Assembly (NCBI GenBank): GCA_965279165.1
Contig: OZ257140.1
Coordinates: forward strand, 2,936,167-3,000,166
Reading direction: 5' to 3'
DNA: 64,000 bases
Source: Bacteroidia bacterium
Lineage (GTDB): Bacteria > Bacteroidota > Bacteroidia > UKL13-3
The position numbers were made by a program, and so were the translations under genes. Shown in pieces: positions 2,099-48,800 of the stretch. The notes beneath the pieces were generated by a model, which did no database searches, had not been told where the DNA came from, and saw only the letters and a program-made list of their open reading frames with translations. The first letter of the stretch is position 1. Each line of letters opens with the position of its first letter.

Positions 2099-4045
2099 TT
2101 GCCCATGAAAAGGATAATAAGTAAAGTACGAACTTATCCCGTAACTTCATTCCTATTAATAGCAATTTTTATTTCGGTTTTTGTAACCTTACAATGGAGT
2201 TGTAATGACAACCAATCAGTTGAAAAATCACTCTATTTAAACCACAACGATTCGGTTAAATATGTTGGTATGCAAACTTGCCAATCCTGTCATGCCGCTA
2301 TCTATAATTCATTTATACAAACCGGCATGGGTAGTTCGTTTGGGTTGGCCACACGAATAAAAAGTGCAGCTAATTTTGGAACACATCATGTTGTTTTCGA
2401 TAAGTACAACAACTTTTATTACTATCCGTTTTGGAGAAACGATTCGATGTTTATATCCGAATTCAGATTAAAAGAAAAAGATACTATTTATAAACGAACC
2501 GAATATGTAAAGTATATCATTGGATCGGGTCAACATACCAATTCACATCTAATGGAGGTAAATGGTTATATATACCAATTGCCATTAACTTGGTATTCGC
2601 AAAGCAAAAAATGGGACTTGCCTCCCGGATTTGAAAAGGGCAGAAACGTAAGGTTTAACAGAGATATTGGTTTTGAATGCATGAGTTGCCATAATGCATT
2701 ACCCGATTTTGTAGAAAATTCAACCAATAAATTCACCAATATTCCACAAGGTATTGATTGTGAAAGATGCCATGGGCCGGGCGAAATGCACGTAAAAGAA
2801 AGACTTACCGGCAGCAAAGTGGATACTTCTCAAATGCCGGATTATACGATTGTAAATCCGAAACGATTAACATGGGAATTACAAACAGATATATGTCAGC
2901 GATGCCATTTACAAGGAAATGCCGTTGTTAAGCACGGTAAATCATTTTCCGATTTTAGACCTGGAAAACATTTGTCGGATTACATGGATATTTACATGCC
3001 TAAGTACATCGGACATGAAGAAGAATTCATCATGGCAAGTCATGCACAACGTTTACAAATGAGTAAGTGTTTTATCAATGCGGATCAATCCAAAGCATTA
3101 ACCTGTATCACTTGTCATAATCCACATGTGAGTGTTAAAGTAACAGGTAAACAAATTTTTAACAATGCTTGTATACAATGCCACCAAGACAATAAAACCT
3201 GCACCGAAACAACCGCCCTACGAATGGCAAAAGAAGATAATTGCTGGGGTTGTCATATGCCTAAATCAGGTACCATTGATATTCCGCATGTAACGGTTAC
3301 CGATCACTTTATCCGAAAACCATTAAAGAAAAGAGTAAAGGATGAATTGAAAATATTTGCAGGAATATATTGCATCAATAATAAATCGAGTGACCAGGAA
3401 ACCAAGGCGAAGGCATACCTAGCTTATCGGGAAAAATTTGAAGGTGAAATGACTGCTTTGGATTCGGCAGAAAAGATCGTACAATCCTTAGGAAATACGG
3501 AAAATTCAAACATCGTATTGCGTATTCATTTGTTGTTTTTACGCAATGATTATTTGGGAATTATACGGTTAATAAAAAATATACAAATCCAAAGTTTAAA
3601 TGATCCGTGGACATGCTATCGTATCGGTCAGTCATACCAAAATGTGCAACAAAATGAAATGGCATATTCATGGTATGCAGAAGCAAATCGATTGGCACCC
3701 GAGAATCTTGATTTTGCCAATAAGCAAGGTGCAATATTAATTGCAATGGGAAAGGTGGAAGAAGGAATTCGATTGCTTGAAACATTGATAAAAACGCAGC
3801 CCAAACAACCTGAAGTATTGACAAATATTGGTTTTGGTTATGTAGTTCAGAAGCAATACGAATTGGCAATGAGATATTACGACCAGTCGCTTTCACTAAA
3901 TCCCGATATGCAACAAACCTTGTATAACAAAGCCGCCTTGTGTAATTTGTTAGGCCGAAAAATGGAAGCGAAAGCAATCCTTTTGCAATTATTGAAAAAG
4001 GATCCTACCAATAACCAACTTCAACAAATTTTAGAAACCATATAA
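2099..4045 (+). CDS. multiheme c-type cytochrome with C-terminal TPR repeats
   Basis: There is an N-terminal TM helix and seven CxxCH heme-binding motifs (CQSCH, CMSCH, CERCH, CQRCH, CITCH, CIQCH, CWGCH). The C-terminal third has TPR-like repeats (YRIGQSYQNVQQNEMAYSWYAEANRLAPEN...). Confidence 0.8.
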   Translation: MPMKRIISKVRTYPVTSFLLIAIFISVFVTLQWSCNDNQSVEKSLYLNHNDSVKYVGMQTCQSCHAAIYNSFIQTGMGSSFGLATRIKSAANFGTHHVVFDKYNNFYYYPFWRNDSMFISEFRLKEKDTIYKRTEYVKYIIGSGQHTNSHLMEVNGYIYQLPLTWYSQSKKWDLPPGFEKGRNVRFNRDIGFECMSCHNALPDFVENSTNKFTNIPQGIDCERCHGPGEMHVKERLTGSKVDTSQMPDYTIVNPKRLTWELQTDICQRCHLQGNAVVKHGKSFSDFRPGKHLSDYMDIYMPKYIGHEEEFIMASHAQRLQMSKCFINADQSKALTCITCHNPHVSVKVTGKQIFNNACIQCHQDNKTCTETTALRMAKEDNCWGCHMPKSGTIDIPHVTVTDHFIRKPLKKRVKDELKIFAGIYCINNKSSDQETKAKAYLAYREKFEGEMTALDSAEKIVQSLGNTENSNIVLRIHLLFLRNDYLGIIRLIKNIQIQSLNDPWTCYRIGQSYQNVQQNEMAYSWYAEANRLAPENLDFANKQGAILIAMGKVEEGIRLLETLIKTQPKQPEVLTNIGFGYVVQKQYELAMRYYDQSLSLNPDMQQTLYNKAALCNLLGRKMEAKAILLQLLKKDPTNNQLQQILETI

Positions 4046-5097: not shown

Positions 5098-5611
5098 TAC
5101 TTAATGTTTTAGTTGGTGAGAATGCTGAAAAGGGGACTTCTATTTTTAAGAGGCAAGAGGCAAGAGGCATTAGACAGGAGGCAAGAGTATGTTGCCTTAT
5201 AAATTTTCATACAAATGGAAATGATTCTCCGTATTGAAGTACTAATTGTTTTAGTTACAGAGCCAATTTATTTTCTGACTTTTCAATAATTGTAGCCCTG
5301 AAAGGGCGACATATCCAAGCATCCTGCGAAGCAGGTTGATAACCGATAAAATTATTCATCACAGCCCTGAAAGGGCGACATATCTTTTTCGAAGAGTTAA
5401 GTTTTAGTACCAGATGTTTTGTGGTGCATTACATTGTAGGTAAGCTTTTTTGTTAAAAAGATGACTGACAAGGTAGTTTCTATTGTATCCAATCGCACCA
5501 CTGCACCATTCCCCATTCATAATTCATAATTCATAATTGTATCTCAAACTTCTATTAATCTGTATTATTCTACTTTAATAAACTATCTTTGATTTACAAA
5601 TAAATACCACT

Positions 5612-6244: not shown

Positions 6245-6249
6245 CTACA

Positions 6250-6318
6250 CTTATATCTTATAACTTATATCTTATAACTTATATCTTATAACTTATAACT
6301 TATATCTTAAACTTATCC
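6250..6318. repeat. CTTATATCTTATAA/AACTTAT tandem repeat island between convergent genes
   Basis: (cttatatcttataa)x3 plus partial units fill the whole gap between the stop of 5612-6244 (+) and the stop of 6313-7560 (-). Reverse-orientation relatives (ataagtt/ataagag) are at 50660-50697, directly after the 1606-aa gene stop. Confidence 0.85.
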
Positions 6319-13212: not shown

Positions 13213-13430
13213 GTTGTTTTTAATTTATTAAAGTGAGAAATGCACCAATTTTTCATAAAGCAATTCAACACTATACCGCAAATATAATCATGGCTGTTGG
13301 TAATCTGATTATCTTTTATTGAAAGTACCCATGAACCCATTCATCCAATCATTCATAATCCATTCCCGCATGTAAAAACTACGTCGTGCCTCCTTGTTTT
13401 TATCGCGCGGGATTGATTCGCCTAGCGTCT

Positions 13431-13480
13431 CATCAACATCCATCCAATCATTCATCATTCATAATTCATCATTCACATCG
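13431..13480. repeat. CATTCAT/CATCCAT heptamer tandem repeat island
   Basis: The sequence catcaacatccatccaatcattcatcattcataattcatcattcacatc has a second block at 13335-13363. The same family is at 38681-38710, 5515-5540 (cataatt), and in reverse orientation at 51344-51430. Confidence 0.85.
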
Positions 13481-13520
13481 TTTTCATCTCAATAAGAAAA
13501 TCCTTACTTTTGTTTATTCC

Positions 13521-14294
13521 ATGGGCAATCGGTTTCTTTTTTTATATATTATATTCACGCCAATCTATCTGGTTGCTCAGGTACCTTCTTCAAAAATGGA
13601 TTATATGGAAGGAGGAAACCGTATTCTTGATTTTAAAATAACCTACACGTATCAATATGTTGAAGGAGATATGGCTCAACGTTTTGGTAATCTTAACCAT
13701 GTTGGTGGTGGTATTGTATATAAAACCAAAAAAAACTGGGCAGCTGAGTTAGAGTTGGGATACCAGTTTGGAAATGAAGTAAAAGAACCGGGGTTATTGT
13801 ATTTTCTCACCAACAGCAGTGGTGTAGTAATGAACAGCGGAGGTTATCCTGCTAATTATACGTTAGGCGAAAGAGGGTTTAATTTCACCGTTAAAATGGG
13901 GAAGGTATTTGCACTTTCAGATTATAACCGAAACTCAGGTATAATGGTAATGGTCGGAGCCGGATATTATATGCATAAAATTAATATCCAGAATAAAGCC
14001 AACGATATTCCAATGCTAACAGAGGACTTAAAGAAAGGATACGACAGATTAAGTGGCGGTTTTGGTCTAACTGAATTTATAGGTTATATGTTTCATAGCC
14101 AGAACCGCTTTATTAATTTTTATATAGGATTTGATTTTGTACAATCGTTTACCAAAAGTATTCGCGGTTATAATTACGATCAAATGCAATTCGATACTAA
14201 AAAGCGAATGGATGTTACCAATGGATTGAGGGTTGGTTGGTTAATACCTGTATATTTAAATGCAGCCGACGAAGACGAATTTGATTTTAAATGA
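13521..14294 (+). CDS. hypothetical secreted/outer-membrane protein (start corrected to internal Met with signal peptide)
   Basis: The ORF-track start at 13386 reads through the CATTCAT repeat island and would give a His-rich N-terminus. MGNRFLFLYIIFTPIYLVAQV is a plausible signal peptide. The gene overlaps waaA by an ATGA junction, which suggests an operon. Confidence 0.6.
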   Translation: MGNRFLFLYIIFTPIYLVAQVPSSKMDYMEGGNRILDFKITYTYQYVEGDMAQRFGNLNHVGGGIVYKTKKNWAAELELGYQFGNEVKEPGLLYFLTNSSGVVMNSGGYPANYTLGERGFNFTVKMGKVFALSDYNRNSGIMVMVGAGYYMHKINIQNKANDIPMLTEDLKKGYDRLSGGFGLTEFIGYMFHSQNRFINFYIGFDFVQSFTKSIRGYNYDQMQFDTKKRMDVTNGLRVGWLIPVYLNAADEDEFDFK

Positions 14295-17722: not shown

Positions 17723-17780
17723 CCCATTACCCATTACCCATCTGCCATTACCTATTACCCATAAGCCATTACCCATCAGC
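17723..17780. repeat. CCATTACCC-type tandem repeat island, right arm of the inverted-repeat pair
   Basis: The sequence cccattacccattacccatctgccattacctattacccataagccattacccatcagc is the reverse complement of the 16843-16887 island. Confidence 0.8.
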
Positions 17781-17876
17781 TATAAGCTACATTCCTTGCT
17801 TAATCCAAATATTTCCCCTAATATTGCATCCCCCTTAAAATAAGAAGGGAGACTTAGGGAAAGGAGGTGTATAAAA

Positions 17877-18175: not shown

Positions 18176-19081
18176 TTGTTGGGTATGATAACCGAAAAGA
18201 CTGAAAAATTTGTTCAATTCCTTACCTACGAAAAGAAATTTTCTCCGCATACCATAAGCAACTATTCTTCAGATATTCTACAATTCACTCAATTTCTGGA
18301 ATTAACTTATGGAATAAGCCAAGTAACCGCTATTACACATTTACAAATTCGTTCGTGGATTGTATCACTCATGAATGAAAAAATTTCGGCCCGTTCTGTT
18401 GCCCGAAAAATTTCGACACTTAGATCCTTTTTCAAATTCCTGAACAGGGAGGGCGATTTAACTTTTAATCCTTTACAAAAAGTGAATTTGCCTAAAACGG
18501 TAAAAAGACTTCCGGTTTTTGTTGAAGAAAAACCAATGAATCGCTTGTTTGATCAGGTTTTGTTACAAACTGAAGGAGATACCTTGGAAATGCAACGCAA
18601 TCGATTAATTCTATTGTTATTCTATTCAACAGGAATACGTTTATCTGAGTTAATTGGGATTAAAAAGCAGGATGTCGACCAGAGTAGGGGGACCTTAAAA
18701 GTACTGGGTAAACGTAATAAAGAACGGATTATCCCGTTAACTTTAGAGGTTCTTGTCGAGATTAAGAAATTTCTGGATTTGGAGGAGCAACTAAAATTTA
18801 ACAGCGAATACTTGTTTTTAACAAATAAAGGAGAGAAATTGTATCCTAAATTGGTATACCGGATAGTAAATAGTAGTTTGGATATGGTGACATCGATCGA
18901 AAAAAGAAGTCCGCATGTTTTGCGCCACACATTTGCAACCCATTTATTGAATAAAGGAGCCGATTTAAATGCAATAAAGGAGCTCTTGGGACATGCAAAT
19001 CTGGCAGCCACGCAAGTTTATACCCACAATAGTATCGAACGATTAAAACAAGTTTACAAGAAAAAGCACCCACGTGCCTGA
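18176..19081 (+). CDS. tyrosine-type site-specific recombinase (XerC/XerD-like integrase)
   Basis: The C-terminal catalytic region HVLRHTFATHLLNKGADLNAIKELLGHANLAATQVYTH has the R..H..R..Y tetrad spacing of tyrosine recombinases, and there is an N-terminal SAM-like core-binding domain. It sits between rpsU and hpf. Confidence 0.85.
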   Translation: MLGMITEKTEKFVQFLTYEKKFSPHTISNYSSDILQFTQFLELTYGISQVTAITHLQIRSWIVSLMNEKISARSVARKISTLRSFFKFLNREGDLTFNPLQKVNLPKTVKRLPVFVEEKPMNRLFDQVLLQTEGDTLEMQRNRLILLLFYSTGIRLSELIGIKKQDVDQSRGTLKVLGKRNKERIIPLTLEVLVEIKKFLDLEEQLKFNSEYLFLTNKGEKLYPKLVYRIVNSSLDMVTSIEKRSPHVLRHTFATHLLNKGADLNAIKELLGHANLAATQVYTHNSIERLKQVYKKKHPRA

Positions 19082-19158
19082 TAAAATTCCTGTCAAAACA
19101 AAATAACAGAGGCTAGTGGTTAGGACAGGTAACTGCTACTTCGCAAACGAAACATACC

Positions 19159-19467
19159 ATGAAAATAAACATTCAATCCATCCATTTTGATGCCGACCAA
19201 AAGTTACTTGAATTTATCAACCGAAAAATTGAAAAGGTATTGACTTTTTTTGATGATATTAAAAGTGCAGATGTGTACTTGCGGGTTGAAAAGGATAGTG
19301 AAAAAGAAAATAAGACCATAGAAGTAAAATTAAATATCAATGGAAATCCGATTTTTGCTACCGAAAAAAGCAGCACATTTGAAACCGCAACAGATATGAT
19401 TGTAGATAAACTGGTGGCCCAAGTAAAAAAGCACAAAGATAAATTATACGAAAAAGCATCTTCTTAA
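19159..19467 (+). CDS. hpf: ribosome hibernation promoting factor (short HPF/RaiA)
   Basis: 102 aa; MKINIQSIHFDADQKLLEFINRKIEKV ... VYLRVEK matches the sigma-54 modulation/ribosome-associated inhibitor family. Confidence 0.85.
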   Translation: MKINIQSIHFDADQKLLEFINRKIEKVLTFFDDIKSADVYLRVEKDSEKENKTIEVKLNINGNPIFATEKSSTFETATDMIVDKLVAQVKKHKDKLYEKASS

Positions 19468-19488
19468 TAATTGATATTCAAATAGAAA

Positions 19489-19520
19489 GGTCCGGAATAA
19501 TTAATTCCGGACCTTTTTTT
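19489..19520 (+). terminator. rho-independent terminator after hpf
   Basis: ggtccggaat-aatta-attccggacc is a perfect 10-bp stem, followed by ttttttt. Confidence 0.85.
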
Positions 19521-19628
19521 ATACTAAATTTGGTAATGTTCAAATAATCCCCCAACTTCGCGCCCCTGTTACGCTTCCAACATCTCTTTAAATAATTTTA
19601 CAAAAAGTTTGCTTCCTATTTGCATTCA

Positions 19629-19659
19629 TCCTGCAAAACACTACATTTGCAGTCCTTTT
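19629..19659 (+). promoter_or_regulatory. candidate Bacteroidota sigma-A promoter (-33 TTTG / -7 TAnnTTTG) for the tRNA-tuf operon
   Basis: TTTG at 19629-19632 and TACATTTG at 19652-19659 have a 19-nt spacing that matches the Bacteroidetes consensus. It lies ~55 nt upstream of tRNA-Thr. Confidence 0.4.
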
Positions 19660-19712
19660 TTAAGGATAGTGTGGTGTTGGTAGTTCTTTGCAGTGAAAGC
19701 AATATAAAAAAA

Positions 19713-19785
19713 GCCACTTTAGCTCAGCTGGTAGAGCAACTGATTTGTAATCAGTAGGTCGCTGGTTCGATCCCGGCAAGTGGCT
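19713..19785 (+). tRNA. tRNA-Thr (anticodon TGT)
   Basis: I folded the cloverleaf by hand: acceptor gccactt/aagtggc, D-arm gctcagctggtagagc, anticodon stem ctgat/atcag with loop ttTGTaa, T-arm gctgg-ttcgatc-ccggc. Confidence 0.85.
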
Positions 19786-19850
19786 CAGTGGTCTGTTGTG
19801 GTTTGGAAGCCAATCAAGATTTTGAATAAGGTAGTTGCCTTATTTTGAAC

Positions 19851-19933
19851 GGGGAGATACCAAAGTGGCCAACTGGGACGGACTGTAAATCCGTTGTCTT
19901 ACGACTTCAAAGGTTCGAATCCTTTTCTCCCCA
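19851..19933 (+). tRNA. tRNA-Tyr (anticodon GTA), long variable arm
   Basis: Acceptor ggggaga/tctcccc, anticodon stem acgga/tccgt with loop ctGTAaa, a long variable arm, and T-loop ggttcgaatcc. Confidence 0.85.
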
Positions 19934-20059
19934 CATCGTCCACCATAGCTTGGCGAAGGTGGACAACAAAGCAACCCGGGTTGCTGATAATATTGCTTTC
20001 AAACGGAATTGGATTTCGGGAAAGTAAAATCATCTTGGTTAAACCCAAGGTAAAAAAAT

Positions 20060-20132
20060 GCGAGAGTAGCTCAGTTGGTAGAGCGACAGCCTTCCAAGCT
20101 GTAGGTCGCGGGTTCGAGCCTCGTCTCTCGCT
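20060..20132 (+). tRNA. tRNA-Gly (anticodon TCC)
   Basis: Acceptor gcgagag/ctctcgc, anticodon stem acagc/gctgt with loop ctTCCaa, and T-loop ttcgagc. Confidence 0.85.
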
Positions 20133-20207
20133 CGAAATGATAGGACATTGGACTTGGTCATTGGTGCATTACCAATGACCAATCGCCATTGACCAATGAC
20201 TTAAAAA

Positions 20208-20507
20208 GCCGTTGTAGCTCAGTGGTAGAGCATCCGCCGGTTGGCGGAGAAGAGGTTGAGAAGATAGGAAGTGAAGAAATAAGCCGTTGTAGCTCAGTGG
20301 TAGAGCATCCGCCGGTTGGCGGAGAAGAGGTTGAGAAGATAGGAAGTGAAGAAATAAGCCGTTGTAGCTCAGTGGTAGAGCATCCGCCGGTTGGCGGAGA
20401 AGAGGTTGAGAAGATAGGAAGTGAAGAAATAAGCCGTTGTAGCTCAGTGGTAGAGCATCCGCCGGTTGGCGGAGAAGAGGTTGAGAAGATAGGAAGTGAA
20501 GAAATAA
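20208..20507 (+). repeat. tandem array of four identical 75-bp units, each a 3'-truncated tRNA-Thr(GGT) copy with the anticodon arm replaced by a perfect GC hairpin
   Basis: The unit gccgttgtagctcagtggtagagca|tccgccggttggcgga|gaagaggttgagaagataggaagtgaagaaataa starts at 20208, 20283, 20358 and 20433. Its first 25 nt equal the 5' acceptor strand and D-arm of the tRNA at 20508. The next segment is a 6-bp/4-nt hairpin (tccgcc ggtt ggcgga), and the tail is purine-rich. The T-arm and 3' acceptor strand are absent. All three frames are open on both strands, so the ORF-track entries here are artefacts. Confidence 0.85.
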
Positions 20508-20579
<72 letters not shown>

Positions 20580-20837
20580 CAAGTAGTTGGGGAAGAAGGT
20601 CAAGGGTACTTCCGATTAATATCGGAACCGAAAGCTTTCAAGTTCTTTCAACCACAAAGATTTGGAAGGAAAAATAGCAAGTATAGGTGAATAAGGTTGC
20701 TATTTCGGTCAAAAAACTATACAAAGGGTGTAGTTAACGTGAGGAGAGAAGGGTTAATAAAGCAGAAACTAAAATGCAATCGATTAACCAATGAAAAAGG
20801 AAACTCAATATAAATAAAACATAAAAATTAAATCAGT

Positions 20838-22025
20838 ATGGCAAAAGAAAAATTCGACCGCAGCAAACCGCACGTAAATATCGGTACTATCGGTCACGTT
20901 GATCACGGGAAAACTACCTTAACAGCTGCTATTACAAAAGTATTATCAGATGCAGGTCTTTCTGAGGCACGTTCATTTGAATCTATTGACTCTGCGCCGG
21001 AAGAAAAAGAGCGTGGTATCACTATTAACACTGCTCACGTAGAGTATTCAACAGCAAGCCGTCACTACGCACACGTAGATTGCCCGGGTCACGCGGATTA
21101 TGTAAAAAACATGGTAACAGGTGCTGCCCAAATGGATGGCGCTATACTTGTTGTTGCATCAACAGACGGACCTATGCCGCAAACACGTGAGCATATCCTT
21201 TTGGCTCGCCAGGTTGGAGTTCCTCGTATCGTTGTATTCATGAATAAAGTGGATATGGTTGACGACGAAGAATTATTAGAAATCGTTGAAATGGAAATCC
21301 GTGATTTGTTAAGCAAATACGAATTCCCTGGACAAGAAATTCCTATTATCCGTGGATCTGCCTTAGGTGGATTAAACGGAGAAGCTAAATGGGTTGAGAA
21401 AATCATGGAATTGATGAATGCAGTAGATACTTACATTCCGGTTCCTCCTCGTGCAACTGAACTTCCTTTCTTGATGCCGGTAGAAGATGTGTTCTCGATT
21501 ACAGGTCGTGGAACTGTTGCTACAGGACGTATCGAGCGCGGAATCATCAACTCTAACGAAGGTGTTGAAATCATCGGTCTAGGTGCTGAAAAATTAACAT
21601 CAACGGTAACAGGTGTTGAAATGTTCCGCAAAATTCTTGACCGTGGTGAAGCTGGAGATAATGTTGGTTTATTGTTACGTGGTATTGAAAAAGAAGCTAT
21701 CCGTAGAGGGATGGTTATTTGCAAACCGGGTTCAGTAACACCGCATACAAAATTCAAAGCTGAAATTTACGTATTGTCAAAAGACGAAGGTGGACGTCAC
21801 ACTCCGTTCTTTAACAAATACCGTCCACAGTTCTATTTCCGTACTACAGACGTAACTGGCGAAACCCAATTACCTGAAGGAATGGAAATGGTTATGCCTG
21901 GTGATAACGTTACGATTACTGTGCAGTTAATCGCACCAATCGCAATGGAGAAAAACTTACGTTTCGCTATCCGTGAAGGTGGTAGAACAGTAGGTGCCGG
22001 ACAGGTAACTGAAATTTTAGACTAA
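20838..22025 (+). CDS. tuf: translation elongation factor Tu
   Basis: 395 aa with [18 protein letters not shown] and NKVD GTPase motifs and the canonical EF-Tu sequence throughout. Confidence 0.97.
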
Positions 22026-22088
22026 TCATAGTTTAAGTAGATACTGAATGTTGGGTAATTTGATTATCCAACATTTGGTGTCTCATAA

Positions 22089-22322
22089 ACGAGTGTAGTT
22101 CAAGGGTAGAATAGTCCCGCACGTGCGGGATTGATGGGAGTTCGGTAGAGGAAAAAATTGATGTTGGTTTTAAAAGTTGAATAATGAAAAAGTTAAAACC
22201 AATAAACGAGTGTAGTTCAAGGGTAGAATAGTCCCGCACGTGCGGGATTGATGGGAGTTCGGTAGAGAAAAAAATTGATATTGGTTTTAAAAGTTGAATA
22301 ATGAAAAAGTTAAAACCAATAA
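22089..22322 (+). repeat. two tandem 117-bp units, each a 3'-truncated tRNA-Trp copy with the anticodon arm replaced by a palindromic GC hairpin
   Basis: Units start at 22089 and 22206 and differ at 2 positions. Each is acgagtgtagttcaagggtagaata (= the tRNA-Trp 5' acceptor strand and D-arm), then gtcccgcacgtgcgggat (cccgcacgtgcggg is a perfect palindrome), then tgatgggagttcgg (variable loop and 5' T-stem), then an AT-rich tail containing the 10-bp hairpin ttggttttaa...ttaaaaccaa. The ORF-track entry 22033-22431 (-) is an artefact of this. Confidence 0.85.
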
Positions 22323-22393
22323 ACGAGTGTAGTTCAAGGGTAGAATAGCGGTCTCCAAAACCGTTGATGGGAGTTCGAATCTCTCCACTCGTG
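22323..22393 (+). tRNA. tRNA-Trp (anticodon CCA)
   Basis: Acceptor acgagtg/cactcgt, anticodon stem gcggt/accgt with loop ctCCAaa, and T-arm gggag-ttcgaat-ctctc. It sits between tuf and secE, the conserved position. Confidence 0.85.
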
Positions 22394-22459
22394 CAAAAGT
22401 AACTTGGGAGTTCGAATGGCATCAATAGCAAGGAGTTCGCCCATGTAATTGCAAAAGCA

Positions 22460-22657
22460 ATGAATAAAATAAGAGAATATATAAAATTATCTACGGATGA
22501 GCTTGTTAATAAAGTAACATGGCCTACCTGGGAAGACCTTCAGGAAAGTACCATCATTGTGATGATTGCTTCCTTGTTAATTGCCCTTGTAATCTATGTA
22601 ATTGATATAATAAGCAGCGGATCACTGGGTTTTTATTACCAACTGTTCCAAAGCTAA
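22460..22657 (+). CDS. secE: preprotein translocase subunit SecE
   Basis: 65 aa; the N-terminus YIKLSTDELVNKVTWPTWEDLQESTIIV is followed by a single TM helix. It occupies the conserved position between tRNA-Trp and nusG. Confidence 0.85.
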   Translation: MNKIREYIKLSTDELVNKVTWPTWEDLQESTIIVMIASLLIALVIYVIDIISSGSLGFYYQLFQS

Positions 22658-22664
22658 GATTAAG

Positions 22665-23222
22665 ATGGAAACGAATACAACACAGGATCAATTTAAATGG
22701 TACGTAGTGCGTGCAATAACCGGACAAGAAAAGAAGGTGAAAGCACAAATCGAATCTGAACTCGAGCGATTGGGTTTATTGAAGCATGTACCACAAATAT
22801 TGATTCCTACGGAGAAGGTTTACCAGATTAAAAATGGTAAGAAAACTACAAAGGAGAAAAGTTATCTGCCGGGATATATACTAATTCAGGCGGAATTGTC
22901 GGGTGAAGTGCCGCATACTATTGCTTCTATTAATGGAGTAGTTGGATTTTTAGGCGGTAAGGATATGCCTACTCCTTTGCGTCAGGCAGAAGTGAGTAGA
23001 ATTCTTGGTAATGTAGATGATATCTCTACACAAGGAGAAACAATGGTTGAGCCTTTCATCCTGAATGAACCGGTTAAGGTAATCGACGGTCCATTCAGCG
23101 GGTTTAGTGGAGTGATAGAAGAAGTGATGGAAGACAAAAAGAAATTAAAGGTAATGGTAAAAATCTTCGGAAGAAGAACCCCGCTTGAATTGAATTTCAT
23201 GCAGGTTGAAAAAGAAAGTTAA
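22665..23222 (+). CDS. nusG: transcription termination/antitermination factor NusG
   Basis: An NGN domain (KWYVVRAITGQEKKV) and a C-terminal KOW (VIDGPFSGFSGVIEEV) are present, in the conserved gene order. Confidence 0.92.
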   Translation: METNTTQDQFKWYVVRAITGQEKKVKAQIESELERLGLLKHVPQILIPTEKVYQIKNGKKTTKEKSYLPGYILIQAELSGEVPHTIASINGVVGFLGGKDMPTPLRQAEVSRILGNVDDISTQGETMVEPFILNEPVKVIDGPFSGFSGVIEEVMEDKKKLKVMVKIFGRRTPLELNFMQVEKES

Positions 23223-23270
23223 AAGAAAAGACAAATAGTTCGCCTTGGGTGGACATAAAAAACAAGAGTT

Positions 23271-23711
23271 ATGGCTAAAGAATTAACAGGATTTATTAAA
23301 TTACAGATTAAAGGCGGCGCAGCTAATCCGGCACCTCCAATCGGACCTGCATTGGGTTCAAAAGGGGTTAATATCATGGAATTTTGCAAGCAGTTTAATG
23401 CGCGCACCCAAGATAAAGGCGGAAAAGTATTGCCTGTTGTAATCTCCGTATACAGCGATAAATCTTTTGATTTTGTAATCAAAACACCTCCTGTTGCATC
23501 CCAATTACTGGAAGCAGCTAAGGTTCAGAAAGGTTCTGCTGAATCGAACCGTAAAAAAGCGGGTTCGGTAACCTGGGAACAGGTGAAGAAAATTGCAGAA
23601 GATAAAATGCAAGACATGAATTGCTTTAAGGTAGAATCAGCCATGAAAATGGTAGCAGGTTCTGCTCGTAGCATGGGTATCACAGTTACGGGTGATGCTC
23701 CGGTGAATTAA
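23271..23711 (+). CDS. rplK: 50S ribosomal protein L11
   Basis: [34 protein letters not shown] is the canonical L11 sequence. Confidence 0.95.
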
Positions 23712-34720: not shown

Positions 34721-35605
34721 CTATCGCGACTGTTCATAAATTTCTACCAAATTGGCTTTTAATTTAGAATGTTGGAAAAACCCGGGTTCGTTTAAGATAG
34801 AATTGTAGTAAATTTCTTGTTGAAGTTCCGGTTCTTCTGCTAAACTGTTGTAATGTGCCAATAAAACATCGTATAGTTTATCAATGTGTCGATCATAGTA
34901 AAATTCCATTTTTTCATAACCCATTATTTCGAAATCTGCCATATTGAAACTCTTAAAATAATAATAGTAGTTGTTGTTAAAAGTTGGCAAACGATTGCAA
35001 TAAGAAACAATTCTTTGTGGATTTTTAATTTGAATCAACGTTTGAAAACGGGCTGCAACCAATGCTTCTAATAGGTTTACAAAAAATATGGTACGCTCGG
35101 TAGAATCTTTTAATCCATAGGAATCTATGTCGATATTGGTGGCACTTAAATCGGTATTGGTAATTAAGTTGCCTAGTCCACCATTTATCCGATAATAGTA
35201 ATTGTCGAGCAACCAACGTTCGTCTATTTGTTTGGTTAAAGTTTCTTTCGCCACATCCATATCGGGTCTAGGTTTTTTTGTTTTACTGATGCGGTTATAA
35301 TGTATTTCTCTTACAACATACCATAGCAACATTTCAAATCGTTCGGGTCTTTGCATAAAAGTGGAAGTAAATAATGCAGGAGTTCCTTTGTTCGAAAGAA
35401 TCATGGCATCGGCAAGTTTATTGAGTAATGGTGTTCTTAACGAATCTATCGATTTAGCAAAATGGTCGTTTTTTGCAACCATATTGCCCGAATAAAATTG
35501 GCTCATGGCAACCAAGTTTTGTATATCTGCATAAGCAAATTTTACTTGGGCATTAATAGTGGTTGCCAATAGAAGGCAAAAAATGGACAGGGATTTTCTA
35601 GACAT
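34721..35605 (-). CDS. hypothetical secreted protein
   Basis: 294 aa with an N-terminal signal peptide (MSRKSLSIFCLLLATTINAQ). It is Tyr/Asn-rich and I do not recognise any domain. Confidence 0.55.
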   Translation of the reverse strand: MSRKSLSIFCLLLATTINAQVKFAYADIQNLVAMSQFYSGNMVAKNDHFAKSIDSLRTPLLNKLADAMILSNKGTPALFTSTFMQRPERFEMLLWYVVREIHYNRISKTKKPRPDMDVAKETLTKQIDERWLLDNYYYRINGGLGNLITNTDLSATNIDIDSYGLKDSTERTIFFVNLLEALVAARFQTLIQIKNPQRIVSYCNRLPTFNNNYYYYFKSFNMADFEIMGYEKMEFYYDRHIDKLYDVLLAHYNSLAEEPELQQEIYYNSILNEPGFFQHSKLKANLVEIYEQSR

Positions 35606-35800: not shown

Positions 35801-36499
35801 ATGAAAAGATTATTCCTCATTGCTTTCGGATTTGTAATTACTTCCAATACATTGATTGCACAGGTTAAAAGTGGCATCACTTCTTTAACTTTTAATGGCT
35901 ATGCCAGGGCCATGACAGTAGGTGATGACAAAGATGAGATTGACTTGCGTTTTGTTGGTTCTACCTCTACCCGCATAGGGGATAGTTTATTGTCGGATAT
36001 GATATTAACTTATTCGGAACAGGAAATCGGAAAATTTCTAGGGCATGATTTGTTACCGGTATCCCGTGTTAGAAGTAAAAATACCCCGGATGATTTAAAT
36101 GGATCCTTGTTTGTGATGGAAACCATCACTGAAAAGAAGGCATTTAAAGAACTTGATTACGACGAAGTAATTACCATACAATGTAGTATTAACCGAAATA
36201 GCTCGAAAACGGTGAAAGGCAACAAAATGTATGAACCGATCATTACATTGAATATTCGCATTACAGGAAGAGACGGAGAAAAAATTTATAAGAAAAGTGA
36301 GTCGTTAAAATTGAAAGATCAATGGATAGCTGCAGCATTAATTGAAGAAAAACAGGCGGATGGAAAGTTCGACGTGTCGTTAAAAAATCTAAAAACCGTT
36401 ACCGTGGATACCGGTGGCAGCGATATGGCAAAAGGTGTGAGTGCCGTTGAATTACTTGACTGGTATAAACAAGTTTTAGGGAATGCGCTTATTCGATAG
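35801..36499 (+). CDS. hypothetical secreted protein
   Basis: 232 aa with a signal peptide (MKRLFLIAFGFVITSNTLIAQ). No domain recognised. Confidence 0.55.
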   Translation: MKRLFLIAFGFVITSNTLIAQVKSGITSLTFNGYARAMTVGDDKDEIDLRFVGSTSTRIGDSLLSDMILTYSEQEIGKFLGHDLLPVSRVRSKNTPDDLNGSLFVMETITEKKAFKELDYDEVITIQCSINRNSSKTVKGNKMYEPIITLNIRITGRDGEKIYKKSESLKLKDQWIAAALIEEKQADGKFDVSLKNLKTVTVDTGGSDMAKGVSAVELLDWYKQVLGNALIR

Positions 36500-36712: not shown

Positions 36713-38545
36713 TTGCTGCAAATGAATGAAATAACAACTAAAGGTCATACCTTTCATATACCGGTAATGGGATTGGCATATACCATTGACACTCCTTTAA
36801 AAGTAGCGAAATACGGAATATCTTCAGTAATTTCTATTGTGGAAGATGTATTGATAGAACAAATGCGGGAATTCCACGCCAAACAGGCCGGAATAGTATT
36901 TAATCCAATACCAATAGATTCAAAAGATTGTCGTGCAAATCGCATTACTGCATACCTAAATTTGGTGCATCAATTGGTGAACGAACAAATCTCTGCCTTA
37001 AAAATTTCTGATTTTTCAAAAGGGTCGGAATTACATAAATACTTTGAATTGTTACCTGAAAATGCTGCACTCAAATTAGTTTATAACAATATGTTAGTTA
37101 TGCAAGAGGGTAAGGATAAAGAAGCTTTGCAAACTTATTTAAAGGATAATATTGTTGCCGGCGATATTGATGTAAACATTATGTCGAAGGCCGATCGGTT
37201 TACCTTTACCAAAGCCGGTGATGCAATTATCGACGAAAATTCGATGGCACTTGCTGCCTTACGCGGTTTTGCCAATAGCAATCTTACCTCTTCTGTGGTA
37301 TTATCAGCAGGATTTAATCCACGGTTGTATGCCTACCTCGAAAATTTCAAAGATTTTTTTCCGGATGCAAAAGGACAAGTAAAAAAGAAGATCATTTTAA
37401 AAGTAAGTGATTACCGTTCGGCATTAACACAAGGAAAATTACTGGCAAAGAAAGGGGTATGGATTTCAGAATATAGGATTGAATCCGGTTTGAATTGCGG
37501 AGGTCATGCCTTTGCTACAGATGGAATTTTACTTGGGCCGATTTTAGAAGAATTTAAAAGGAACCGCGATTCCTTGCAAAAGGAATTGTATACGATGTGT
37601 AATCTTGCGCTTGAAGCAAAAGGAGCAATTCCATTTGCAGGTATTCCTATTATGAAAATATCAGTACAAGGTGGTGTTGGTACTTCTTTGGAAAACGATT
37701 TATTACTCGATTATTATAAAGCCGATAGCATTGGATGGGGAAGTCCGTTTTTGCTGGTTCCGGAAGCTACCAATGTAGATGAAGAAACATTGAATCAATT
37801 GGCAAATGCACAAAAAGAGGATTATTACTTGAGTCATTCATCACCTTTCGGAATACCATTTAATAATTTTCATCCTTCATCCTCACAGCAACAACGTTTA
37901 CAAAGAATAGAAAAAGGTGTTCCCGGAAGTCCTTGTTATAAAAAAGGCCTGGCTAGCAATACCGAATTTACAAAGGAACCTATTTGCACTGCTTCAAGGG
38001 AATACCAGCATCTAAAGATTAAACAGTTGCAAAGTGCAGGATTGCCTGAAGCTGAATATTTAGATGCTTATAACGCTGTTATCGAAAAGGAATGCCTTTG
38101 TGAAGGACTTGCAGCATCTGCTATTATTAAGAATGACATCAAACCATTGCATAAATTAAAAGCAGTTGCTATTTGCCCTGGACCAAACCTTGCCTTTTTC
38201 TCCGGTAAATTTACCCTTGCAGAGATGGTAGGACATATTTATGGTCGTTTTAATATTCTAAACCAGGAAAGAAGACCACATATGTTTGTTAACGAACTCA
38301 AGTTGTATGTAGATTATTATAAGAATGAATTAAATAAGAATGTGCAGGAATTAACAGCAAATAAAGCACGTCAACTCAAATCATTCCAAACCAACCTGCT
38401 CGAAGGAATTGACTACTACAATAAACTAATTGGTGAGTTGAAAATTGATGCGGAAAAATTTGTTGAAGACATGAAACAGGATTTGCTTGAATTAGAAGCG
38501 GTTTTGAGGCATCTTACGTACGACAAAGAAATGAGTAGAATTTGA
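36713..38545 (+). CDS. hypothetical protein (610 aa), unrecognised family
   Basis: It is a long ORF with coding-like composition and no signal peptide. It contains ESGLNCGGHAF and Cys-containing segments (KECLCEGLAASAII, AVAICPGPN), and the C-terminus is coiled-coil-like. I could not assign a family from the sequence. Confidence 0.6.
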   Translation: MLQMNEITTKGHTFHIPVMGLAYTIDTPLKVAKYGISSVISIVEDVLIEQMREFHAKQAGIVFNPIPIDSKDCRANRITAYLNLVHQLVNEQISALKISDFSKGSELHKYFELLPENAALKLVYNNMLVMQEGKDKEALQTYLKDNIVAGDIDVNIMSKADRFTFTKAGDAIIDENSMALAALRGFANSNLTSSVVLSAGFNPRLYAYLENFKDFFPDAKGQVKKKIILKVSDYRSALTQGKLLAKKGVWISEYRIESGLNCGGHAFATDGILLGPILEEFKRNRDSLQKELYTMCNLALEAKGAIPFAGIPIMKISVQGGVGTSLENDLLLDYYKADSIGWGSPFLLVPEATNVDEETLNQLANAQKEDYYLSHSSPFGIPFNNFHPSSSQQQRLQRIEKGVPGSPCYKKGLASNTEFTKEPICTASREYQHLKIKQLQSAGLPEAEYLDAYNAVIEKECLCEGLAASAIIKNDIKPLHKLKAVAICPGPNLAFFSGKFTLAEMVGHIYGRFNILNQERRPHMFVNELKLYVDYYKNELNKNVQELTANKARQLKSFQTNLLEGIDYYNKLIGELKIDAEKFVEDMKQDLLELEAVLRHLTYDKEMSRI

Positions 38546-38578
38546 GTAGGAGGCAGGAGGCAGGAGGCAAGAGGCAGG
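38546..38578. repeat. GGCARGAG purine-rich tandem repeat
   Basis: ggaggcaggaggcaggaggcaagaggcagg starts right after the stop of 36713-38545. A relative, agaggcaagaggcaagaggcattagacaggaggcaagag, is at 5149-5187 after mltG. Confidence 0.8.
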
Positions 38579-45840: not shown

Positions 45841-48800
45841 ATGACTAAAATGATTACAACAATTGGCAGATTTATAGTGGTGCTCTTAATGTGCCTGTCT
45901 TTTCAAAATTTATATGCTACCCATATGGTTGGTAGTGATATCACGTATAAATGTTTGGATGCAAATGGAAACTATAAAGTTACCCTTGTTTATTACCGCG
46001 ATTGTTCGGGAGTTCCAACCTGCGGAGGAAATTGCAGTGCAATTGCATCTTGTACCAAAAATGTTTCGGTTCGTGGAGCCGACCCATCTTGTAATGGTAC
46101 GTTGTTTTTGAACTTTACAGTAACAGGTGTAAGTGTTCGTGATGTTAACCCAAATCCACGTTGTGCAAATGCAAAAATGATTTGCGATAATATGGGATGT
46201 GTTTCACCGGGAAGTTTAACTCCCGGGATTGAACGATACGAATTTCAAGGTATCGTAAATATTGGTCCTTCATCTGGTATTCCTGCCACATGTTGTAATG
46301 TTGTGTTTTCATTTGAGGAATGTTGTCGTAATGGAGCCATTCAAAATATTTCGCCACAAAATTTTTATACCGAAGCAACGGTAAACCGTTGTGCGGCTAC
46401 TTATCCGGATTGTAACTCTCCGGATTTAACCAACGACCCTTATGCTGTTTTATGTGCAGGTCAAGGATTTATTTTTAACAATGGTGCTTTTGATCCGGAT
46501 TTGGATTCGTTGGTATATTCATTTACTGCTTCTTTATACGGTTACGGCGTTTCGGCAACTTATATTGCTCCATACTCGTATGATATACCAATGCCATACA
46601 AACCACCGTTGAGTGGAAATTATCCATTTGGTATCAAAGTAGACGCATTAACCGGAGATATTATGTTTACCCCAAATGCATTTCCTTTTACCGGATGTTT
46701 GGCATTACGCATGGAACAGTGGAGATTAATCAATGGGGTATATGTGGTCGTCGGGGTTACACGAAGGGATTTGCAGATGTATATCAAATACTGCGACCCG
46801 AATACGCCACCTACACTTCGAACCGATCCACCCGGGATTCCGCCGCTCAAACCCAAAACAAAATATGAGGTCTGCGCGGGGGATCAGGTATGCTTTGATG
46901 TGATTGCAAAAGATACCGATTTTAATCCACCAACCATTTCGGATACTACTTTCCTTTCGTGGAATAAAGTAATGGAAAACTTCGGTGCTACTTTTATTCC
47001 AAATTATAATCCTGCTGCCCGTAAGGTATTAGGACCGAGAGAAGATACCTACAAAGTTTGCTGGACACCGCAAGATATCCATTGCAAACGCGGACAACCA
47101 ACAACCTATCCGTTTACCATTAAGGCAGTGGATAGCCGCTGTCCGTATCCCGGAATTATCACCCAGGCATTTTCGATACGAGTCTTGCCACGGGCAGATG
47201 TTTCGGTTGATAAAGTGGATAACCAATGTGGCCGATGGGTGGTCAGGTACTTGAAGAATCCTGCCCTTGTGCCGGCTCAAACTTTCCAGTCTACCACCAT
47301 TATGATTGCCAAAAATCCGGAGGATTATTCCTTTATGGGTGGCGCGTATACCTACGCCAATGTGCAATCAAGTCCTGTTTTGTATTTCCCTAAAGGAGGA
47401 AAATACCTCATTGAGGTAACCATTAATATGCTTGGTCCATCCACCGGAGGATTTTGCTCTCGCACTTACCGCGATACGTTGTATGTAATCACACCGGTTA
47501 CTTCCATTATACGCGATACGTTTACTTGTAAAAATGTTAGCATGACCATCAGTGCATCGGGCCAATTCGGAAGTGCACCGTATACCTACCGTTGGTACAA
47601 CAATATAAAAGATACCCTAACCCCATTAAATGGTCCGGTTTATACCAGTGCCAATTACAATGTATCACCAACATCAACCCGCCATTATACTTTGCAGATA
47701 AGGGATATCAACGGATGCCGGAGCTGGGATTCGATAGCCGTGCAGGTAAAACAATTGCCGGTAGGATTGCTTGCCGATTCGGCTCGTATCTGTTTTGGCG
47801 ATACTTTCCTGCTGGATCCCGGAAATAATAACGGCAATATCCGCAGTTATTTATGGAATACAGGAGATACCACAGCCACCATTGCTCGAAAAGATTCCAA
47901 TACATTTACGGTAATCATGACCGATACATTTGGCTGCGTTAATCCGGATAGTTTAAAATTATTTGTAAATGCAAAAATTAATGCCCGTGCGGGATTGGAT
48001 ACCTTCATTTGTCAGAAAGATACAACCTTGCTGATGGGCGAAGGCGGCAGCCAGTATATGTGGAAGAACCTTGCCAACGGACAAACCATATCGGCAAAAA
48101 GTTATATTCCATTTGTAAAGGTAAATCCAACCAATACGGCAGCAGCTACCAAATACCAGGTAACGGTTTACCAGAGTTACCCCGATACCACCAATAAAAA
48201 TTTGGAATGTAGTGCCGTGGATACGGTAGCCATATCGGTACGTCCATTGCCAACCTTAAGCAAACCATCCACCCCAACCATTGCTTGTTATGGAAGTTTG
48301 GTTGCAAACTTATATCCGTTTAATACTCCTGTACCGGGCCAACAAGGTGGAACAGGTGTGTGGAGTTATCCAAAAGCACCGGGTGCAGTAGTGTTCCCAA
48401 ATACCGGACCAAGCATTACTTCACAACCTGCCGTAAAACTGGATAGCTTAAAAAATAAACCAAGCGGGGATAGTTTTAATACACACGATAACTATGTAAA
48501 CTTTACCTATACCGAACCGGTTTATGGATGTAAAAATACCGACTCTGCCATTGTACGTATATATGGCCGTCCACCGGTAGATGCAGGAACAAGATTAACC
48601 GTATGTGAGAACATCACCGGAACGATAGATTTACAGACAACCGCTTATCAGGGGCTTCCACCAAACGGACATAATGTACAACCAAAGTACAACTCGGGTT
48701 TATCGGCACAGTATAACTGGATAGGAAACGGAATTGATTCGGTGATGAGTCCGGTGAAGAAGTTTTACTTTAATCCGAGCAAAGCAGGCGTACTTAAATT

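Follow-up and report, generated by a model that had tools for sequence, protein, structure and literature searches.

We analysed a 64-kb window (the whole stretch of 64,000 nt at positions 2,936,167 to 3,000,166 of contig OZ257140.1) from a Bacteroidia bacterium, in which rpsU, an Xer-like recombinase gene, hpf, tRNA-Thr/Tyr/Gly/Thr, tuf, tRNA-Trp, secE and nusG follow one another. This gene order is common to uncultured, mostly freshwater Bacteroidia (best NusG match, 92% identical), and the order tRNA-Thr/Tyr/Gly/Thr - tuf - tRNA-Trp - secE - nusG was kept wherever related loci covered these genes. Exact-match queries with the SecE, NusG and EF-Tu proteins of the window found no identical sequence in the protein collection searched. 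Our subject is a tandem array between tuf and tRNA-Trp, made of two partial copies of the tRNA-Trp gene in which a palindromic hairpin has taken the place of the anticodon arm. Units of the same design form a recurrent class in Bacteroidota, and the hairpins in them are members of a copied family. Elsewhere in Bacteroidota, members of this family and partial tRNA copies stand in physical linkage with a small GIY-YIG gene.

Partial tRNA-Trp copies downstream of tuf

Tandem Repeats Finder reported a repeat at 22085-22348 with a period of 117, 2.3 copies and 98% matches, and the two Trp units (Table 1) differ only at 22151 and 22163 (or the matching positions), both G to A. Behind its ATAA leader, each unit carries nt 1-26 of tRNA-Trp, which comprise the 5' acceptor strand and the D-arm and are identical to the parent gene at 26/26 positions, and further on nt 42-55 (TTGATGGGAGTTCG; variable loop, 5' T-stem and TTCG), identical at 14/14. 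Between these two stretches, the 15 nt of the real anticodon arm (CGGTCTCCAAAACCG) have given way in both units to a perfect 16-nt palindrome, TCCCGCACGTGCGGGA, which has no sequence in common with the arm it replaced. The unit closes with an AT-rich tail of 61 nt containing a perfect 10-bp hairpin, TTGGTTTTAA / TTAAAACCAA, extended to 12 bp in unit 2. All three breakpoints (nt 26/27, 41/42 and 55/56) fall at stem-loop boundaries of tRNA-Trp. The leader ATAA together with nt 1-26 makes a 30-nt direct repeat, which occurs for a third time where the intact tRNA-Trp begins. Beyond that gene lies a short T-arm scrap, with a second GGAGTTCG ~30 nt further on. When the palindrome was considered as the permuted acceptor stem or T-stem of another tRNA, the fit covered 5-6 nt only.

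A sequence-only reading of this DNA had described the two 117-bp units with 2 differences, their exact tRNA-derived parts, the tail with its 10-bp hairpin, the real tRNA-Trp at 22323, a T-arm fragment downstream of it and a sister array of identical tRNA-Thr units of the same build, and our analysis bears out each of these points. ARAGORN and Rfam agree on the position of the intact gene, and the T-arm fragment recurs at a length of 13 nt. The proposed swap of the anticodon arm for a perfect palindrome also stands, though not as the exact exchange of a 17-nt arm: 15 nt were replaced by 16 in the Trp units, and about 13 by 16 in the Thr units.

The Trp units are non-functional partial copies of tRNA-Trp, running from leader position -4 to nt 55. 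We counted as a tRNA a sequence with a cloverleaf (acceptor stem, anticodon arm with a 7-nt loop, and T-arm) and a covariance score of at least 29 bits. A cmscan search of 19000-23500 with RF00005 at E<=10 found only the 5 intact tRNAs, and ARAGORN likewise called only these 5 and no Trp or Thr unit; nor did any Rfam family match the Trp units. The units do not contain nt 56-72 (the 3' T-stem and 3' acceptor strand), and their anticodon arm is a stem of 6-8 bp with a loop of at most 4 nt, in line with the earlier view that they are not alternative tRNAs. Consensus matching alone picked out a sigma-70-like TTGATA-16-AATAAT in the tail of unit 2 (22275-22302) and a weaker match in unit 1 (22158-22185). 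A global fold of 22026-22459 paired the two palindromes with each other, an uninformative artefact of their self-complementarity.

To place the array among related genomes, we used 80 loci fetched through NusG, a sample not selected for hairpins; these and further loci are referred to by number (L001 and so on). Unit 1 begins exactly where the real tRNA-Trp of the relatives begins, after a conserved hairpin and the motif GTCTnATAA. Across 58 relatives the tuf-tRNA-Trp spacer ranges from 16 to 212 nt and is most often 61-64 nt long, whereas it measures 297 nt in the window; subtracting the array (297 - 234) leaves 63 nt, the modal value. Given that the spacer without the array has the length that is normal for the clade, and that unit 1 starts at the ancestral tRNA start, the Trp array is a lineage-specific addition. 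At this junction, all 58 Bacteroidia loci in which both tRNAs are resolved lack any addition as large as the array, which answers the comparison that the sequence-only reading had proposed. In L001, the closest relative, the tRNA-Trp-secE spacer is only about 15 nt and holds no T-arm scrap.

The sister array lies upstream of tuf, between tRNA-Gly and tRNA-Thr(GGT). Each of its four identical units consists of nt 1-25 of tRNA-Thr(GGT), the hairpin TCCGCCGGTTGGCGGA (first copy, 20233-20248), GAAGAGGT and a purine-rich tail, and the Gly-Thr spacer is 374 nt long in the window versus 8-276 nt in relatives. The sequence-only reading took the identity of these units, set against the slight divergence of the Trp units, as a sign that the two arrays differ in age; recent amplification or homogenisation could equally leave units identical. 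The pattern TCCSSSNNNNSSSGGA (TCCSSS-N4-SSSGGA) occurs 6 times in the window, with 0.09 expected, and all 6 occurrences lie in the Trp and Thr arrays. Downstream of the intact tRNA-Thr(GGT), a decayed 3' fragment of the same gene includes a still perfectly paired hairpin, TTCCGATTAATATCGGAA, at 20610-20627, and the orthologous sites of L002, L003, L004, L010 and L030 have TCCCGATAGCTATCGGGA or variants of it in the T-loop of a better preserved fragment. This hairpin is absent from L001 in a spacer comparison made by eye, since the spacers of the window and L001-L004 have diverged too far for the indel to be positioned by MAFFT. A heptamer repeat, ACCAATG x4 (20171-20200), stands right before the Thr array.

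Table 1. Features of the tuf-tRNA-Trp junction and of the tRNA-Thr region (window coordinates)
Feature	Position	Strand	Details
tRNA-Trp array, unit 1	22085..22201	+	117 bp; tandem-repeat analysis and comparison with tRNA-Trp
Unit 1, leader ATAA	22085-22088	+
Unit 1, copy of tRNA-Trp nt 1-26	22089-22114	+
Unit 1, palindrome	22115-22130	+	TCCCGCACGTGCGGGA
Unit 1, copy of tRNA-Trp nt 42-55	22131-22144	+
Unit 1, tail	from 22145	+
Unit 1, hairpin arms of tail	22164-22173 / 22193-22202	+	10 bp
tRNA-Trp array, unit 2	22202..22318	+	117 bp; head-to-tail with unit 1
Unit 2, leader ATAA	22202-22205	+
Unit 2, copy of tRNA-Trp nt 1-26	22206-22231	+
Unit 2, palindrome	22232-22247	+	TCCCGCACGTGCGGGA
Unit 2, copy of tRNA-Trp nt 42-55	22248-22261	+
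Unit 2, tail	from 22262	+
Unit 2, hairpin arms of tail	22279-22290 / 22310-22321	+	12 bp
Third ATAA leader copy	22319-22322	+	directly 5' of intact tRNA-Trp
Intact tRNA-Trp(CCA)	22323..22394	+	ARAGORN; Rfam RF00005, 65.7 bits
tRNA-Trp T-arm scrap TGGGAGTTCGAAT (nt 46-58)	22405..22417	+	13 nt, without hairpin; direct repeat; between tRNA-Trp and secE
tuf (EF-Tu) coding sequence	20838..22025	+	395-aa open reading frame (ORF); upstream neighbour of the array
Conserved hairpin AATGTTGG...CCAACATT, then GTCTCATAA	22039..22083	+	inverted repeat; directly upstream of tRNA-Trp in L001-L010
tRNA-Thr array	20206..20532	+	Tandem Repeats Finder: 75 bp x 4.4, 100% identical
tRNA-Thr units (four, identical, 75 bp)	starts 20208, 20283, 20358, 20433	+
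Intact tRNA-Thr(GGT)	20508..20580	+	downstream end of tRNA-Thr array
Decayed tRNA-Thr(GGT) 3' fragment	20590..20640	+	downstream of intact gene

A copied hairpin family in redundant tRNA sequence

Units of tRNA fragments at tRNA-Gly, -Thr or -Trp, beside the intact gene, were present in 12 of the 80 NusG-fetched loci. If scraps and isolated matches to short words are set aside, all recognisable units contained a substituted hairpin with ends of the form 5'-TCC(C)G...C(G)GGA-3', which replaced the D-loop, the anticodon arm or the T-loop, and the tRNA-derived stretches were identical or nearly so to the parent gene. By our own count, 5' fragments lay upstream and 3' fragments downstream of the intact gene in all examined loci. 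We define the class by three features: a partial copy of the adjacent tRNA, this polarity, and a stem-loop replaced by a 15-32-nt hairpin with the ends given above. The Trp units of the window have all three, namely exact tRNA parts, 5' fragments upstream, and the hairpin TCCCGCACGTGCGGGA at the anticodon arm.

The hairpin was found at three places in the tRNA. D-loop nt 15-17 were replaced in L003, L005-L007 and L030, and T-loop nt 58-60 in L002, L003, L004, L010, L030 and L051; the anticodon arm was replaced in the window and, within the NusG-fetched sample, in L003. The sequence-only reading had suggested a small palindromic element that targets anticodon loops. Its shared element family is upheld, whereas specificity for anticodon loops is not: D-loops and T-loops are equally replaced, and the element occurs on unrelated hairpin tips and within heptamer repeats as well.

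Among 24 hairpins compared, the first pair, T-A, was invariant (24/24), and pairs 2-5 were kept through compensatory changes. The 7-bp stem of the window Trp units, TCCCGCA/TGCGGGA, recurs in the anticodon arm of tRNA-Ala fragments (L184, L378) and in the T-loop of tRNA-Thr fragments (L003); its presence at loop and arm positions of these fragments agrees with the earlier argument for a precise swap in place of random decay. Likewise, a tRNA-Gly fragment of L003 shares the Thr-type stem TCCGCC/GGCGGA. L005, L006 and L007 have orthologous tRNA-Gly units, which are conserved in the tRNA parts and the hairpin base and diverge in the tails and hairpin tips. Two of the hairpin loops are GNRA loops on the sense strand (GAAA, GTAA). 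A variant hairpin, TCTCGT...ACGAGA, occurs in L001 and L048, where tRNA-Gly 3' fragments repeated downstream of tRNA-Gly include TCTCGTTCTTAAAAACGAGA (L001, 1-130) and TCTCGTCATAGGACGAGA (L048, 3150-3270). The loop in L001 resembles a motif, GTTCTTTAAAAAC, that immediately precedes tRNA genes in L003, L184 and L378 and is possibly boxA-like.

The tRNA sequences that host hairpins are redundant or partial copies, together with three full-length tRNA-like sequences that ARAGORN did not call; we saw no hairpin inside a tRNA called intact in the examined loci. These three stand in atypical tRNA clusters from metagenomes (L094, ~1059-1076; L165, ~200-217; L198, ~3430-3447). In L165 the palindrome replaces the whole D-arm, and the anticodon arm reads TCCCGA-CTGTCTC-TCGGGA; in L198 the palindrome lies in the T-loop.

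We then scanned metagenomes for TCCCGATANNTATCGGGA, leaving its two centre bases free, and obtained at least 130 copies. Among the matches listed, to which the counts that follow refer, the free centre was GC in 101/130 copies, giving the perfect 18-nt palindrome TCCCGATAGCTATCGGGA as the commonest form; because the centre was free to vary, this agreement shows that the palindrome was copied and not reinvented by convergence. The copies came from soil, freshwater and marine samples with GC contents of 0.31-0.52. Twelve of the 130 lay within 100 nt of an intact tRNA, versus 2.06 expected in the same loci, and these tRNA-proximal copies were located inside partial copies of the Phe, Ala, Met, Val, Leu, Ile and Asn tRNAs, including tRNAs of the 16S-23S spacer. 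Most copies lay away from tRNAs, and 22% of copies stood at the tip of an unrelated hairpin, versus 11% in controls. The palindrome also lies inside heptamer tandem repeats in metagenome loci L099, L161 and L188, and it has inserted into itself in L030, L124 and L357. A recurrent composite, CCTCACCCC-[palindrome]-CTCTCC...GGAGAGGGGA, in the flanks of L323, L333, L349, L364, L089 and L095 suggests a second small hairpin-repeat family with the 18-mer nested in it.

We also looked for a larger vehicle. No pair of lone half-palindromes spanned an ORF, as the ends of a larger transposon would, and no IS200/IS605-type Y1 transposase was seen beside the palindromes inspected. The inspected ORFs flanked by palindromes looked ordinary and none resembled a RAYT gene, no protein-family scan having been made of them. 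Literature searches on the palindrome sequence, on tRNA-fragment repeats and on GIY-YIG proteins with tRNA in Bacteroidetes returned nothing relevant and no description of such a system.

A GIY-YIG gene between intact and displaced tRNA copies

At L184, an 83-aa ORF separates an intact tRNA-Ala from a second copy of that tRNA which bears a hairpin, a connection to a nuclease gene that the sequence-only reading had not anticipated. This ORF and those of L143 and L162 encode a GIY-YIG domain (Pfam PF01541, E 2e-8 to 7e-16), and a hidden Markov model (HMM) built from the three found a further GIY-YIG ORF in L158. All four ORFs stand between an intact tRNA and a hairpin-bearing copy.

These loci had been ascertained through the hairpin. 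We removed this bias by searching for homologous proteins and fetching their contigs, which yielded 7 distinct places. Every one of them (7/7) showed the same succession of intact tRNA, terminator, ORF and, at most 30 nt from the stop codon, a hairpin inside a copy of the same tRNA, followed by the rest of the tRNA 3' end and often by a second copy of the terminator. The tRNA was Asn, Met or Ala. Such composites are present in Flavobacterium cerinum (L368), F. ammonificans (L369), a Chitinophagaceae metagenome-assembled genome (MAG; L371), metagenomes (L372), Agriterribacter (L378), a Chitinophagales MAG (L379) and a 3.6-Mb contig (L381). In total, a GIY-YIG ORF was found beside a duplicated tRNA segment in L143, L158, L162, L184, L368-L372 and L378-L388. 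The ORF continues into the tRNA copy and takes its stop from it: GTTAA of the tRNA-Asn anticodon loop serves in L368 and L369, and TAG of the D-arm in the Ala elements. Within one lake population, the ORF module occurs either once or at least twice in tandem, a sign of ongoing dynamics.

Two of the composites connect the gene to arrays of the window type. L378 and L379 each have, with the ORF in cis, two tandem units upstream of the intact tRNA-Ala, and each unit consists of nt 1-26, an 18-nt hairpin in place of the anticodon arm, the variable loop, the 5' T-stem and a tail of 35-45 nt, which is exactly the design of the window units. The hairpin after the ORF of L378, TCCCGCAGGCTTGCGGGA, has the stem of the window Trp palindrome, and the hairpins of L379 are nearly the same as each other (TCCCGAAAGCATTCGGGA in the upstream unit, TCACGAAAGCATTCGGGA in the downstream copy). 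A further locus, L380 (1-700), has a GIY-YIG ORF and downstream flank as in L379, and there DNA with a tyrosine integrase gene has taken the place of the 5' half of the adjacent tRNA-Ala, up to the anticodon loop, indicating a second, different mobile element on the same tRNA.

The encoded protein is a bare, stand-alone domain of 83-100 aa of the UPF0213/YhbQ type. It matched no NCBIfam family, and its nearest solved structures, 1zg2 and 1ywl, were both deposited as 'hypothetical UPF0213 protein'.

Explanations and precedents

We lean, with moderate confidence, towards reading the hairpin family and the stand-alone GIY-YIG gene as the two halves of a selfish tRNA-gene system in Bacteroidota. 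The arrays of the window would then be relics or products made in trans, because neither the window (six frames) nor the 80 NusG-fetched loci hold a GIY-YIG ORF in an HMM scan at E<=1. Under such a scheme, the nuclease, or the repair of its breaks, would make the partial duplication and install the hairpin. A break or insertion in a tRNA gene would be repaired so that an intact gene is regenerated beside a displaced partial copy, and stem-loops of the displaced copy would then be replaced by the hairpin. The replacement might remove the tRNA-like or target structure and break up the direct repeat into pieces that are too short to recombine efficiently, allowing the copies to persist. Unequal recombination or slippage between the 30-nt repeats (ATAA plus nt 1-26) would finally set the number of units, two for Trp and four for Thr. 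The window arrays may have lost their ORF, or a nuclease encoded elsewhere in the genome may have made them. The Trp units would presumably be co-transcribed with tuf and tRNA-Trp and removed by the RNase P cut at the tRNA 5' end.

Several observations weigh against this reading, beginning with the very absence of the gene from the window and its relatives. The link between the window array and the nuclease would run through shared hairpin stems and an identical unit design, with no gene in cis, and the window hairpins are variants (TCCCGCA.., TCCGCC..) of the family, not the canonical 18-mer. We infer from sequence the activity of the nuclease, its target, the route by which the palindrome is copied and the connection to the window array, and we know of no citable tested function for the UPF0213 family. 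A simple homing model also fails to explain why the intact tRNA beside an element is spared, since that gene should still be a target. The source of the tails is a further difficulty: when the Trp and Thr tails were aligned locally with neighbouring spacers, the result was not significant (p = 0.13-0.78), and an ungapped, in-register comparison of the Trp tail with the ancestral tuf-tRNA spacer gave a weak likeness of 29/61 identical positions (p about 0.01). Finally, matches to TCCCGCA-N(2-6)-TGCGGGA in viral contigs were mostly unrelated, with only 2/122 near tRNAs, and one of the matches was a tRNA-Gly/tRNA-Gly junction, showing that the stem also arises from acceptor strands.

The main alternative, which we consider unlikely, is that ordinary tandem duplications with one end inside a tRNA gene were later colonised by an independent, REP-like mini-palindrome, the GIY-YIG gene merely sharing the niche. 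Duplication with one breakpoint inside the gene would be expected to give the observed polarity of 5' fragments upstream and 3' fragments downstream, and most of the palindromes are not associated with tRNAs, being enriched at hairpin tips and found in some heptamer repeats. The weak in-register likeness of the Trp tail to the ancestral spacer (61 versus 63 nt) and the lack of a nuclease gene in the window and in the 80 relatives' loci point the same way. Later colonisation should, however, leave some units young and empty, and the hairpin was present in every recognisable unit of the hairpin-independent sample. Moreover, flank similarity ended 0-4 nt from the tRNA ends in the single-fragment cases that we inspected, the tails of the window match no neighbouring spacer, and a hairpin within 30 nt of the nuclease stop in all 7 protein-fetched places is hard to reconcile with independent arrival.

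It is rather improbable that the units serve the tuf-tRNA-Trp transcript as functional RNA modules, such as processing signals, stabilisers or leader-derived small RNAs, as an analogy with RttR of Escherichia coli might suggest. Stems kept by compensatory changes even in decayed flanks (for example TTCCGATTAATATCGGAA), conserved tRNA parts and hairpin bases beside diverging tails and tips in the L005-L007 tRNA-Gly units, and the two sense-strand GNRA loops would all suit such a role, and RttR is itself annotated across the first repeated tRNA-like 3' end. Yet the array is absent at this junction in 58 relatives, copy number varies freely, and the units have nothing that RNase P or tRNA-enzyme recognition would need and match no Rfam family. 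The palindromic 4-nt centre AGCT, present in 101/130 copies among the matches listed, would be needless for RNA structure.

Template switching during replication, through fork stalling or microhomology-mediated repair at tRNA hairpins, could in principle have produced duplication and palindrome in one step. The breakpoints at stem-loop boundaries, the perfect palindromes, which are typical of strand switching, and the richness of the window in slippage-prone short tandem repeats are compatible with this idea. Fold-back would use local sequence, however, and the Trp palindrome shares nothing with the arm it replaced, whereas the same stems and the 18-mer recur across tRNAs, species and non-tRNA sites; we regard this route as very improbable.

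The notion that the units are leftover attachment sites (attL/attR remnants of a tyrosine integrase) is largely refuted. Integrases do cross over in anticodon loops and T-loops and leave tRNA fragments, the insert of L380 at the tRNA-Ala anticodon loop bears an integrase gene, and the window encodes a tyrosine recombinase (18176-19081; Phage_integrase and SAM-like domains) between rpsU and hpf, upstream of the tRNA operon. This recombinase is found at the same position in 46 related loci and is probably a housekeeping Xer-type gene, not an island integrase. Attachment remnants would be 3' fragments bounding an island, whereas the window has tandem 75-117-bp 5' fragments with an arm substituted and no island. 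Refuted outright are a randomly decaying tandem tRNA-Trp duplication, since 40/40 tRNA-derived positions are identical to the parent while the 15 nt adjacent to them are wholly replaced, and a repetitive protein-coding ORF, for although both period lengths (117 and 75) are divisible by 3 and three ORFs, 22033-22431 (-), 20158-20574 (-) and 20189-20677 (+), extend across the arrays, these ORFs overlap tRNA genes and Pfam gave only low-complexity noise with no domain passing.

Returning to the selfish tRNA-gene system, parts of it resemble known systems. Free-standing GIY-YIG homing endonuclease genes include the seg genes of phage T4, with segB in a tRNA cluster, and mobile mitochondrial GIY-YIG ORFs, such as that of Allomyces atp6, carry a replacement gene 3' end and displace the original. 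The Bacteroidota composites are like these in having a small ORF beside or in an essential gene, a regenerated gene, a displaced copy, a frame that runs into the copy and a polymorphic copy number. They differ in that the known examples belong to phages and organelles and have an extra DNA-binding domain, whereas the Bacteroidota proteins are bare domains of 83-100 aa encoded on chromosomes. In addition, the displaced copy in Bacteroidota is always marked by a specific palindrome, and fragment arrays without the ORF exist.

A second parallel is offered by REP/RAYT and by the SDR elements of cyanobacteria, which Elhai et al. (2008) reportedly described as very small dispersed repeats. Like the hairpin family, these are short (16-32 nt), dispersed, intergenic hairpins, often located at terminator-like hairpins and found in nested insertions, and REP/RAYT resembles the Bacteroidota composites in comprising a single small nuclease-type gene flanked by the repeat. 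REPs are imperfect palindromes of 20-40 nt, one end of which carries a conserved tag, GTAG or CGTC (PMC3733652), and the associated gene is RAYT, an IS200/IS605-type Y1 transposase (PMC2817692). REPs number in the hundreds per genome. The Bacteroidota hairpins have no GTAG/CGTC tag: those of the window begin with T and end with A, and GTAG occurs only in the tRNA D-loop, 5-6 nt away. The gene seen beside the Bacteroidota hairpins is of the GIY-YIG type, and no Y1 transposase was seen next to the palindromes inspected. We know of no report that REPs strongly favour the three loops of redundant tRNA copies.

Mitochondrial genomes with mobile GIY-YIG ORFs also harbour GC clusters and double-hairpin elements, which invade their intergenic DNA and their structural-RNA genes. 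The palindrome family is similar in that its small hairpins invade the same two kinds of sequence; the mitochondrial elements are organellar and their sequences are different. We know of no systematic coupling of such elements to partial tRNA gene duplication. Repetitive hairpin-forming elements of mitochondria are the subject of PMC2800124.

The third parallel is architectural, with no sequence relationship. In E. coli K-12 (NC_000913.3, 1286705-1287263; L367), a tandem array of 178 bp x 3.1 directly follows tyrV. Each unit contains ...CAAGGTTCGA, an insert of about 70 nt and then AATCCTTCCCCCACCACCA, a tRNA-Tyr 3' fragment whose T-loop is thereby split (TTCGA | AATCC); judged by eye, the insert is GC-rich and self-complementary. 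The annotated RttR starts 8 nt downstream of tyrV and ends at the CCA of the first repeated tRNA-like 3' end. The tyrT region reportedly yields a stable RNA, according to Egan and Landy in 1978 and Bosl and Kersten in 1991, as the record annotation also has it. As in the window, tandem units stand beside an intact tRNA and a partial copy is interrupted by a hairpin-forming insert. The idea of the insert is that of the T-loop hairpins of L002, L003, L051 and L186, and 3' fragments downstream fit the polarity rule. The E. coli units differ in consisting of 3' fragments with a long, non-palindromic insert, and they are accompanied by neither a dispersed 16-18-nt palindrome nor a GIY-YIG gene, whereas in the window 5' fragments precede the gene and the hairpin stands in for the anticodon arm.

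A more specific proposal is more tentative, though it has a fair chance of being right. The bare UPF0213/YhbQ-type GIY-YIG nuclease and a 16-18-nt palindrome that it, or repair, copies into hairpin loops could constitute an undescribed two-part mobile system, in which arrays without the ORF would be made in trans. By analogy, we can also imagine, short of thinking it probable, that this pair would be the GIY-YIG counterpart of REP/RAYT: a specialist of tRNA genes that regenerates the essential gene and overwrites the D-, anticodon- and T-loops of the displaced copy. If so, the widespread stand-alone UPF0213/YhbQ-type proteins would acquire a concrete role, and an 18-nt palindrome targeting hairpin loops would be a new kind of very small mobile DNA. 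Such a system would also explain the tandem pseudo-tRNA fragments beside many Bacteroidota tRNA genes, including those of the rRNA spacer and the tuf operon, and would provide a mechanism worth considering for the puzzle posed in 1978 by the E. coli tyrT repeats. On the conservative reading, in which a selfish hairpin occupies dead tRNA copies, the swaps at nt 15-17, the anticodon arm and nt 58-60 would still read out, precisely and repeatedly, which DNA or RNA structures are accessible at tRNA genes. In practical terms, arrays of pseudo-tRNA fragments break short-read assemblies and can mislead tRNA annotation.

Elsewhere in the window, the ORFs at 13386-14294, 34721-35605, 35801-36499 and 36713-38545 (232-610 aa) have no Pfam family at E<=0.001, and a 1606-aa ORF (45841-50661) lies in a stretch of higher G+C content, 0.43 versus about 0.36. 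The window also holds many heptanucleotide tandem repeats (51345-51437, 6249-6316, 17723-17787, 5148-5187, 20171-20200, 38548-38578 and others), with ATGAATT x13, ACTTATA x10 and CCCATTA x8 as examples, which are reminiscent of the STRR repeats of cyanobacteria.

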